From Dictyostelium discoideum (lineage: Eukaryota): 64,000 nucleotides of DNA. The stretch's first letter is position 1, and every line of letters starts with the position of its first letter. The stretch lies in assembly GCA_000004695.1 (NCBI GenBank), contig CM000152.2, positions 4,160,001 to 4,224,000 of the forward strand. Reading direction: 5' to 3'. Of this stretch, positions 34,901 to 37,900 are shown piece by piece. Position numbers and translations under genes: made by a program. A model generated the notes under the pieces. It was not told the DNA's origin and did no database searches. It saw nothing but the letters and a program-made list of their open reading frames with translations.

Positions 34901-37900
34901 TTAAGCTATTTTATTTGTTTTCATTTGAATTGATTTCTCAAAAGATTTCTTTTGTTTAGTTTTAACGAAATTATATGTAACAGAAATTCCAATAACTGCA
35001 GCAAAACCTACAGCACCAATGATAATACCAGCCAATTGAGCAGATGATAAACCACCACCAGATTTTGAATTACACTTTGAATTACTTGAATCAGAGATAG
35101 GTAGGATATCTAATAATACCGAGAAATCTGGATCAATGATTGAGGAAACAGAATAATGTGGTATATCAATACCAATGAATGATTGTGATTTTGTTGGTGT
35201 TTTAATTGCATTCATTTCATTATCTAAAATTGAATTTGAAATTGAAACTATTCTATTATCAATAATACCTCTTTTTAATAATCTACCATAAAGTGAATGT
35301 TGATCAATTTGAATTTTAATATAATTTGAATCATCACCTGTACTGGTATCACCAAATTCATTAGCTGAACAAATTGAATCATCATTTGAATTAGTTTCAA
35401 GTTGTGCTGACATTACTAATTGTAATCTATTTAATGCTGAATTAAAATTATATTTTGAAAGTTCAATTGTGTATTTAACAGATGAAGGATTCATTTTAAT
35501 TGTTTGTTGAGCAAAAGTAATATTAGATTCTTTATCAAACCATTGTAATGTTACATTAACAATAGTTTGATTATTAATATCATCACCAATTGTTGTTATA
35601 TATTGTTGAGTTTTTTCATTAATTTCTGTTGAAACCCATTTTTCAAATCTATGGGTTTTATAAACTGAATCATCAAATGTAATTTCTCTAATTGCAACTA
35701 AATTAATAATTGATTTAAATGTTATTAATGATATTTCACCATCATCATCATCATTCGATGGAATGTCAATAGATAAGTTTGGTTCAGTAGAGTTTGGCTT
35801 TGGTTGTGGTATAGTTATTACAATAGAACTACAGTCAAGCCCAATATATGGAGATATACAAAAACATCCAGTTGTAACGCATTTACCTTTATTTGGTCCA
35901 CCGCAATTATTTTTACATTCTTGTGGTGAATTTGTTGGTAAAATTGGAGATTGTGTTGGTGGTTCAGTTACTGGTCTTCTTATAGTTGGAATAGCAATCC
36001 ATGGTTTAATTGTATATTCATTTGATAAAATATTACCTTGTGATTTTTTTAATAGAATTGTATATGATCCAGTTGTATATTTAATATTTGAAATTAAGAT
36101 TGCACTTGGATAAATTTTAACTATTTGTTCAGTTTTATTATTTGTTGGTAATTGTGGTGGTGGAGTTTGGATTTTTGAGTAAATAACATTAACACTATCA
36201 ACTCCATCAAAACATCTTCCATAAATCCATAAATCACCACCATTGCTATTCATTTCACTATTTCCAGTAATTAATGGGGTAATATTGGAATAATTTACAT
36301 TAATAGTAAATGGAAAACCGAGTTGACCCAAGTCATATGATGAATAGCCTCTGAAATAATTATAACTATTTACTATACCATAAACTGAAACTATAATTCC
36401 ATATGGATAACCAAAACCAATTGGTAAATCAATTTCACATTTATATGGAACGTTCGTCATATTGGTTGAGAATTTTGTAGCAGTATAAACTCTAGATTTA
36501 CATTCCAATATATCTAAACCAACACTGCTTAAATATACAATTGGATTTGAGTTTGGTACAATAGAACTTTCCAAATCACCAGTTATAAAGGTGATAGTTA
36601 TTTTTCTATCAACGGAGCCAACGTCAATAGATTTAGGTGAAATAGTAAACTCTTTCAATTCTGGAGGAGTGGTATCAAAATCTGGTTCAGATTCGCAAAC
36701 GGAAGTAATAGTATAAATATCAAAATCATCCAAGAAATTAATGAAAGGATTAAATGAATCGTATAAATCTGGAATTCTATCATTACTATATCTTGAATAA
36801 TGACCTATTGTGTCATTTAAAAATACATCAGTTATTACATATGATTGACTTTTACATGGAGAGTATATTAAAAAACCTATTTCATACATTCCAAAAAATG
36901 AATCACCTGAAATTAAATCTGAAGTAGTAAATTCGATTTCATACAAGGATGAGTCAATCAAACCTCTTACAGTAATTTTACCATATTCAAATCCATTATG
37001 TAAATCTTCAATTTCAATATTCCAACCAATAAATTTCCCATAAGTATCTTCTGATGAAATTACATTATAAGTTTTTTGAATTGTTTTAAATATTGGGCCA
37101 TAACTATCCATATCTTTTTATTATTATTTTTTTTTTAAATAAAAATAATTAGAAAATAATTTATTTAAAATTATCCTACAAATAAATAAATAAATTTATA
37201 TACATACTATGTGAAGTTACATTTAATTGAAAAGATTTTGGAAATATTGAATGATCAATTATAAAGTTTTTATATGAAAAACCATAGGTTAATTCACCAT
37301 GATATATATTTGCATCAACATAAAAATCAGATTGGTATAATTGGATTTCTGAATTCCAAACTACTGGAAATGATTTAAGATTATTCTGTAATAATGATTT
37401 CTTTTGGGTAACAAAATTTAATGGTAAATCGATTGGTACTTTATCTTTAAAATTAAAGTAAACTCTATTTGCAACAATTGTATTTGTAACATTAATACTT
37501 TCCAATTCATATGATAATTCATTAAAATTTTCAAATAGTTCCACTAATTTTTTAAAAAATTATTGTTAATAAAACCATATGATTTATTATTATTATTATT
37601 AATGTTATTGTTATTATTATTATTATTGTTATTGTTATTATTATTATTATTATTATTATTATTATTATTATTATTATTATTATTATTATTATTATTATTA
37701 TTATTATTATTATTATTATTATTATTATTATTTTTATTAATTTTGAAAAACTCACCTGATGGAAATGATTGATTTGAAATATAAATAAATGGAATATTAA
37801 TGAATTGGTTTGCTTGATCAAATATACCAAATAATAGTTCAGAATTTAAAATTGAATTTTCAACAATAATTTCAAATATACCATTATATATATCCCCTGT

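Follow-up and report, generated by a model that had tools for sequence, protein, structure and literature searches.

The 64,000-nucleotide stretch analysed here (the window; NCBI GenBank assembly GCA_000004695.1, contig CM000152.2, positions 4,160,001 to 4,224,000 of the forward strand) has a G+C content of ~21% and is located on chromosome 3 of Dictyostelium discoideum AX4, with window proteins 100% identical to AX4 DDB_G0281325, REXO4 and GrlL. It carries two tandem genes whose last exons share a sharply bounded block of near-identical DNA, very probably maintained by gene conversion. Gene A (34901..39620, minus strand) encodes a ComC-like type I membrane protein and has a last exon running from ~37118 to 34901; gene B (39950..44779, minus strand) is its tandem paralog in the same orientation, 5055 base pairs (bp) away. 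Gene calls in an AX4-identical assembly give 1422 amino acids (aa) for A, the equivalent of 34901-39620, and 1388 aa for B, and the open reading frames (ORFs) at 34901-37111 of A and 39950-42124 of B comprise 736 and 724 aa, respectively. The two proteins are 65% identical over the last exon, in which each contains the Pfam domains DUF7035, DUF7034, DUF7949 (epidermal growth factor (EGF)-like) and ComC_SSD, all four above the gathering score in both genes (bit scores of 43-126 vs cut-offs of 24-27), and both genes fall within the ComC-like family as Pfam defines it. A type I topology is indicated by a hydrophobic N-terminal stretch in both first exons, namely MYLIKLLFLLIFLFG at the N-terminus encoded by exon 1 of A and a hydrophobic, signal-like start beginning MNIKIFLLFLFLFLF in exon 1 of B (ORF 44372-44779), together with a single C-terminal helix (residues 303-348 of the AlphaFold2 model described below).

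A GTATGT..AG intron precedes the last exon of A, as read directly from the sequence. Enumeration of GT-AG introns did not reproduce the 1422-aa model of A, and the exon structure is limited here to the directly readable parts. A ~150-bp (AAT)n run (window 37544-37753, minus strand), which appears as in-frame poly-Asn in the naive ORF of A, actually lies within a GTGAGT...TTAG intron, and what looks like a frame shift at 37544 is in fact a splice junction and not a pseudogene lesion. The last-exon ORFs of both genes are intact in every discoideum-complex strain examined. A word-indexed protein search with the last exon of A and with the peptide of the shared block returned distant paralogs only (at most 43% and 61% identity, respectively); A, B and their orthologues were never among its matches despite called genes in the contig index, and exact-sequence look-ups of several window ORFs gave no match. 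The three genes that flank the pair in one assembly have locus tags numbered without a gap where the pair lies (ACTFIW_001399-001401), and A and B may thus be absent from some deposited protein sets.

An earlier reading of the window, made from its letters alone (the sequence-only reading), had proposed that A 35121-35722 and B 40176-40777 are essentially identical, and an ungapped comparison at an offset of 5055 bore this out, with 591 of 602 positions identical (11 differences, 98.2%). The end of the block had been placed at 35722/40777; it actually lies 7 bp further, at 35729/40784, giving a full conversion tract of 609 bp, 598 of them identical, at 35121..35729 in copy A and 40176..40784 in copy B (both minus strand, the same offset of 5055). 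The tract encodes residues LITFKS...DFSVLL and corresponds to the ComC supersandwich domain. The sharp drop in identity claimed beside it was also confirmed, to 77% on the 5' side in gene orientation (A 35730-35949) and to 61% on the 3' side, with only 64% identity over the 340 bp beyond A 35730-35949; a windowed comparison along the exon thus showed a step, not the uniform identity that would have been at odds with a tract. The 5' boundary is formed by a zone of dense fixed differences with a codon-repeat insertion/deletion (indel) (copy A 35730..35758, B 40785-40816, minus strand), where (GAT)4 in A stands against (AAT)n in B and the offset moves from 5055 to 5058. Here 3-21 bp indels occur at 35752-35758, and A and B show fixed differences at 35730-35733, 35737, 35743, 35746 and 35749 in all four lineages of the strain comparison given below. 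Of the 2132 aligned last-exon columns, 481 differ between A and B; in 2000 permutations of these differences, the longest window with at most 11 of them reached a maximum of 140 bp, compared with the 609 bp observed, and the longest perfect A/B run, 202 bp, compared with a permuted maximum of 68. A chance origin of the tract identity is therefore excluded.

On its 3' side the tract is followed by a diverged juxtamembrane linker (copy A 35075..35120, B 40130-40175, minus strand), whose 46 bp, the source of the 61% value, hold 12 fixed A/B differences plus indels; it encodes a Ser/Asn/Gly-rich stretch, and 35108-35120 form a transition zone with three mismatches. This linker lies between two converted blocks, the second being a homogenised island of 77 bp (copy A 34998..35074, B 40053-40129, minus strand; 76 of 77 positions identical) whose peptide, CNSKSGGGLSSAQLAGIIIGAVGFAAVI, makes up the juxtamembrane segment together with the outer portion of the transmembrane (TM) helix. 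The inner TM portion and cytoplasmic tail of A (34901..34997, B 39950-40052, minus strand) are paralog-specific and not converted, with 62% identity and 30 fixed A/B differences. The sequence-only reading had left both the TM segment and the tail outside the tract; this holds for the tail, but the outer TM helix has been homogenised as a separate island.

The same partition was found at synonymous sites. Nei-Gojobori estimates of synonymous (dS) and non-synonymous (dN) divergence between AX4 A and B were 0.061 and 0.022 in the tract against 0.72 and 0.37 in the rest of the last exon, with 0.19 and 0.016 in the TM island, ~1.5 and 0.53 in the tail, and saturated synonymous divergence in the linker between tract and island. 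Specifically, flank dS ranged from 0.5 to 0.9 against 0.06 in the tract, and along 40-codon windows dS went from 0.54-0.68 in the last windows fully outside the tract through 0.27 in the window straddling the boundary to 0.04 in the first window inside, so that identity changes at the tract edge as a step and not as a gradient. The tract holds ~7.5 synonymous differences over ~129 sites, against a proportion of differing synonymous sites (pS) of 0.46 in the flanks (binomial 6e-24). This loss of synonymous divergence makes constraint at the protein level insufficient as an explanation.

The tract coincides closely with one folded unit, covering residues 462-668 of the last-exon ORF of A where Pfam places ComC_SSD at 463-666. 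In an AlphaFold2 model of A residues 388-736 (window 34904-35950, minus strand; mean predicted local distance difference test (pLDDT) score of 72.6), it corresponds to model residues 75-281, which begin with the first confident strand of a predicted all-beta sandwich and end with its last. The sandwich is bordered in the model by low-confidence linkers (pLDDT <50 for the juxtamembrane linker) and followed by a single TM helix. The flanks had been assigned in the sequence-only reading to the same domain as the tract, a claim that does not survive the model, where the tract accounts for the beta-sandwich and the flanks fall in linkers modelled with low confidence. At both ends, the tract boundaries thus coincide with indel-bearing, low-complexity coding DNA of low model confidence. 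Foldseek searches with the model returned supersandwich folds, the best match in the Protein Data Bank being 8r8q chain B (E 1e-4, TM-score 0.40, root-mean-square deviation 15 A) and the remaining matches generic supersandwich domains of glycoside hydrolases and YidC. Chain B of 8r8q, the MFSD1-GLMP complex, is GLMP, a single-pass protein that serves as accessory subunit to the lysosomal transporter MFSD1 (PMC11252000). Like the modelled region of A, GLMP has a luminal/extracellular beta-sandwich directly followed by one TM helix, but at 11% sequence identity and with poor superposition the match is a lead only and does not imply shared function; it possibly hints at a module that docks on a multipass partner.

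The analysis was extended to related strains and species through syntenic loci found via neighbouring genes in D. discoideum assemblies GCA_054859355.1 (L001/L009), GCA_054859385.1 (L008) and the AX4-identical GCA_054883475.1 (L005), in D. cf. discoideum assemblies GCA_054859205.1 (L003) and GCA_054859235.1 (L004), and in the outgroups D. firmibasis (L002) and D. dimigraforme (L007). These additional assemblies may be the Nanopore assemblies of a Dictyostelium tgr preprint (10.1101/2025.10.22.684067). Both genes are present in all four non-AX4 members of the discoideum complex, L005 is identical to the window over both last exons, and window-by-window alignment placed the identity step at the same position in AX4, L001, L003 and L004. 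Site patterns and distances were taken from an alignment of eight sequences, A and B of these same four lineages. In the tract there were no fixed A/B differences, and 21 lineage-private variants, plus a 3-bp insertion, were present in both paralogs, as opposed to 221 fixed differences and a single lineage-private variant common to both paralogs in the coding flanks (Fisher tests of tract vs flanks: 5e-55 for fixed differences, 5e-8 for shared variants). Each lineage has at least four private variants present in both copies, so exchange must have taken place separately in each. Sharing of tract variants between the paralogs was seen in five D. discoideum-complex assemblies, and outside the tract the differences are fixed and paralog-specific. 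Comparison with related strains had been suggested in the sequence-only reading as a check, and both the identity step and the shared tract variants recurred in AX4, L001, L003 and L004; with lineage-private variants shared inside and fixed differences outside, its central claim of gene conversion localised to a membrane-proximal domain is upheld.

These patterns bear directly on whether one event in the common ancestor, an old conversion or an isolated replacement of the domain, and strong purifying selection since then could explain the tract. Such an event would account for the identical boundaries in all strains and fits the tract being the most conserved domain of the family, where invariant and near-invariant alignment columns cluster. 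However, mutations arising after it should be private to one paralog, and not present in both copies as the 21 private variants and the 3-bp insertion are; moreover, within-strain A-B dS in the tract (0.06) is below the dS between orthologues of different strains (0.07-0.14), and synonymous sites have been homogenised too. This explanation is accordingly regarded as very unlikely.

Distances gave the same picture. Inside the tract every sequence was closest to its within-strain paralog (p-distance 0.016-0.023, vs 0.030-0.048 between strains), and in the flanks always to an orthologue (0.05-0.09, vs 0.31-0.33 for paralogs). Tract orthologues differ between strains by 3.0-4.8%, near the background of neighbouring genes (~2-5%). 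Constraint acting on the nucleotide sequence itself with no exchange, as from an embedded RNA, an antisense transcript or a regulatory element, would be consistent with high identity, which is not specific to it; it is barely conceivable here, given that divergence between strains is at background level and that the paralogs change together, which constraint cannot yield. The 77-bp island behaved as the tract did, with no fixed A/B differences and two L004-private variants (35056 and 35014) in both its copies, and the cytoplasmic tail peptide was nearly invariant within each paralog across strains and different between paralogs.

Within-strain A-B distance in the tract was never zero, ranging from 0.016 to 0.034 across assemblies, a point that matters for the possibility that reads cross-mapped during assembly or polishing have made the copies look alike. 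The concern has a basis, as cross-mapping of short reads between Dictyostelium paralogs has been warned of (preprint 10.1101/2025.10.22.684067). Nevertheless, the window and five further assemblies all show the pattern (over both last exons, one of the five matches the window exactly), some differences between the copies persist in every case, and the boundaries fall at exactly the same base from one assembly to the next. If the reads were long (fragments <10 kb were dropped in the preprint), a single read would also span both genes, 5 kb apart. An artefact of this kind is therefore extremely improbable.

The outgroups place the duplication before these exchanges. D. dimigraforme has one intact A-orthologue and a decayed B-like remnant (L007:17429-18071). 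Its intact gene is closer to AX4 A than to B in the distal exon (0.21 vs 0.37), the linker (0.26 vs 0.52) and the tail (0.15 vs 0.42), and equidistant from the two in the tract (0.122 to A, 0.131 to B) and in the TM island (0.099 and 0.085). With an A-orthologue and a B-like remnant present and equidistance confined to the converted blocks, the duplication must be older than the species split and the tract homogenised since; the flank dS of 0.5-0.9 likewise indicates that the duplication is old. At the syntenic site of D. firmibasis, ~800 bp of one decayed ComC-like copy remain, with stops and frameshifts (L002:13615-14430), and, as these remnants show, the pair has undergone birth-and-death dynamics across species. 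Taken together, the duplication is old, yet in every lineage sampled the 609-bp block and the 77-bp island have undergone repeated, independent exchange, and the 5' boundary has stayed the same.

Individual sites inform on the direction, grain and end points of exchange. L001 and L008, whose flanks are only 1.7% diverged, both carry a TGG insertion at 35589 and a T/TT difference at 35661-35654 in the B copy, but of their A copies L001_A has them and L008_A does not. This points to a recent transfer from B to A in L001; between converted sites L001_A retains A-type states at 35635-35631, so that the transfer was patchy. Conversely, at 35483/35479, positions at which the B copies of the other strains do not differ from one another, AX4_B is of the A type, which indicates an A-to-B transfer in AX4. 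The 3' end point varies among lineages, since the A copy of L004 alone has the B state at 35120 and 35117; in AX4, L001 and L003, A and B still differ at these two positions, to which exchange has therefore not extended. The 5' boundary at 35729/35730, in contrast to the 3' end, is identical to the base in AX4, L001, L003 and L004. In L008_A, ~12 differences are clustered at the 5' tract boundary (window 35722-35739), some of them B-like (35733-35731); possible causes are sequencing error, a local indel or misalignment, and a separate event by which the boundary was shifted. On a rough estimate, an A-B divergence of ~0.02 under a two-copy equilibrium (divergence ~ mu/c, for mutation and conversion) corresponds to a per-site conversion rate ~50 times the mutation rate.

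With high confidence, then, the tract is kept near-identical by recurrent, bidirectional, short-patch interlocus gene conversion between the tandem genes, a process of which a general treatment is available (PMC10503786). A break or gap within the homologous block of one copy would be repaired by homologous recombination, with the paralog on the same chromatid or on the sister chromatid as template, and synthesis-dependent strand annealing would copy tens to hundreds of bp. Heteroduplex would be kept from spreading by the dense mismatches and codon-repeat indels with which the flanks begin, so that the identical island would renew itself while the flanks diverge. Selection probably reinforces the limits of the tract, in that the supersandwich domain is under purifying selection and overwriting of the paralog-specific ectodomain, linker and cytoplasmic tail would be selected against. 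No third near-identical copy that could act as donor was seen in the window or in protein searches.

Selection could also be given the larger part. Localisation would then be mainly its work, with tracts of varied extent arising and only those over the supersandwich and outer TM segments surviving, a possible account to which somewhat less than an even chance is given. A tract that spans one fold, first strand through last, agrees with it, as do tails that are conserved within a paralog and different between paralogs, the homogenisation of the TM island despite its position past fixed heterology, and the 5' boundary shared by four lineages. On the other hand, the boundaries also match indel-bearing low-complexity DNA, which would be expected to block heteroduplex alone; flank dN/dS is <1 and diversifying selection is unsupported. 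On such an account A and B would have to share an identical stalk and TM module while differing in heads and tails.

Several observations weigh against recurrent conversion as the full explanation. Conversion is deduced from site patterns, no event having been directly observed, and a signature of GC-biased conversion was not found, with a G+C content at third codon positions (GC3) of 0.064 in the tract vs 0.126 in the flank. The stability of the boundary is likewise explained indirectly, mechanical limits and selection being inseparable with the present data. The 77-bp island is short for independent recombination and sits past 46 bp of fixed heterology, so that discontinuous tracts, rare short events or selective filtering are needed to account for it. 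Mosaic patches within the tract, such as L001_A 35635-35631, do not fit simple single-tract events, and part of the shared polymorphism could have spread by sexual recombination between strains and not by separate conversions.

By analogy with GLMP docking on MFSD1, the homogenised supersandwich domain might, along with the outer half of the TM helix, form a shared docking module that both proteins present identically to one membrane partner or to each other, a speculative idea considered improbable. Were it true, conversion would let the shared interface co-evolve in both genes while heads and tails stay specialised, and the boundaries, exact to the base and stable across lineages, would reflect selection on a pair of modular receptors that share one stalk but differ in heads and tails.

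Conversion between tandem duplicates has textbook cases in human HBG1/HBG2, RHD/RHCE and the opsin genes, and in the fetal globin genes one tract end adjoins a simple-sequence repeat, as both ends do in the A/B tract. The pair resembles these classic cases in showing near-identity over part of a gene, including at synonymous sites, grouping of paralogs by lineage within the tract, and two-way exchange. Unlike them, its tract is confined to one exon and takes in one fold from its first strand to its last, its 5' boundary is base-identical in four lineages that differ by dS of 0.1-0.2, a second island of 77 bp occurs past fixed heterology, and the host is a haploid social amoeba. In Dictyostelium, interlocus conversion or recombination has been invoked for the tgr genes tgrB1, tgrB2 and tgrBps (preprint 10.1101/2025.10.22.684067), which share with A and B the species complex, clustered genes for single-pass surface proteins, mosaic exchange and intermingled paralogs. 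Exchange among tgr genes is, however, proposed to generate allelic diversity in allorecognition genes that are hyper-polymorphic, whereas that between A and B homogenises a conserved domain with tract polymorphism at background level. Both last exons and two upstream exons of A gave no IPT/TIG match in Pfam (E<=0.01), and A and B are therefore not tgr genes. In the ComC (communication mutant C) family, comC itself is listed as coding for an EGF-domain protein that also has a signal peptide and a TM segment and is restricted to group 4 dictyostelids (PMC4931340), its mutant showing aberrant aggregation (PMC2873529). A and B have the Pfam set of the ComC family, yet are only ~40% identical to other retrieved members. 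A second tandem ComC-like pair was sought in the family, and the one locus obtained (L006) holds a single gene.

The process itself is well known and no new kind of mechanism is involved; literature searches found no earlier report of conversion at this ComC-like pair, which is a newly recognised case. Its value lies in being an unusually well-resolved example of partial-gene concerted evolution, with an old duplication, one folded domain and one event caught between strains 1.7% diverged. Because D. discoideum is haploid and easily engineered by homologous recombination, the locus could be used for measuring ectopic conversion rates and tract lengths, and it could test how indel-bearing low-complexity DNA or mismatch repair fixes tract ends. 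For annotation and population genomics it carries a warning, as short reads will cross-map in the 609-bp block, and orthology-based family trees will be misleading for the supersandwich domain.

The sequence-only reading had further claimed that the distal ectodomain diversifies. This stands as a statement about divergence between the paralogs (dN/dS ~0.5 for A vs B), and not as one about positive selection, which was not supported by the gross ratios (0.25-0.5 between strains). A Pro/Thr-rich linker between DUF7034 and the EGF-like module (35969-36160, minus strand) is the only window reaching dN>=dS between A and B (dN 0.54-0.55, dS 0.44-0.56) and varies highly in length from strain to strain; constraint is probably relaxed there. 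Exons 1 and 2 of A (39282-39620 and 38872-39174) are 15-18% diverged between AX4 and L004, compared with ~3-5% for neighbouring genes, so that the far-distal ectodomain of A is changing several times faster than background.

Elsewhere in the window, a 627-bp ORF (208 aa, MVKVGADPLIKEAFLAAV...) occurs in four copies, at 19327-19953, 22117-22743 and 24950-25576 on the minus strand and, inverted, at 26637-27263 on the plus strand. No Pfam match was obtained for the one copy scanned, and at least three copies are present in other strains, where they are annotated as 278 aa. The coding part is 96.5-98.4% identical among the copies, with ungapped identity of 25-50% beyond ~150 bp upstream and ~50 bp downstream. 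The differences among the copies are mosaic, which suggests that gene conversion or recombination operates in this family too.

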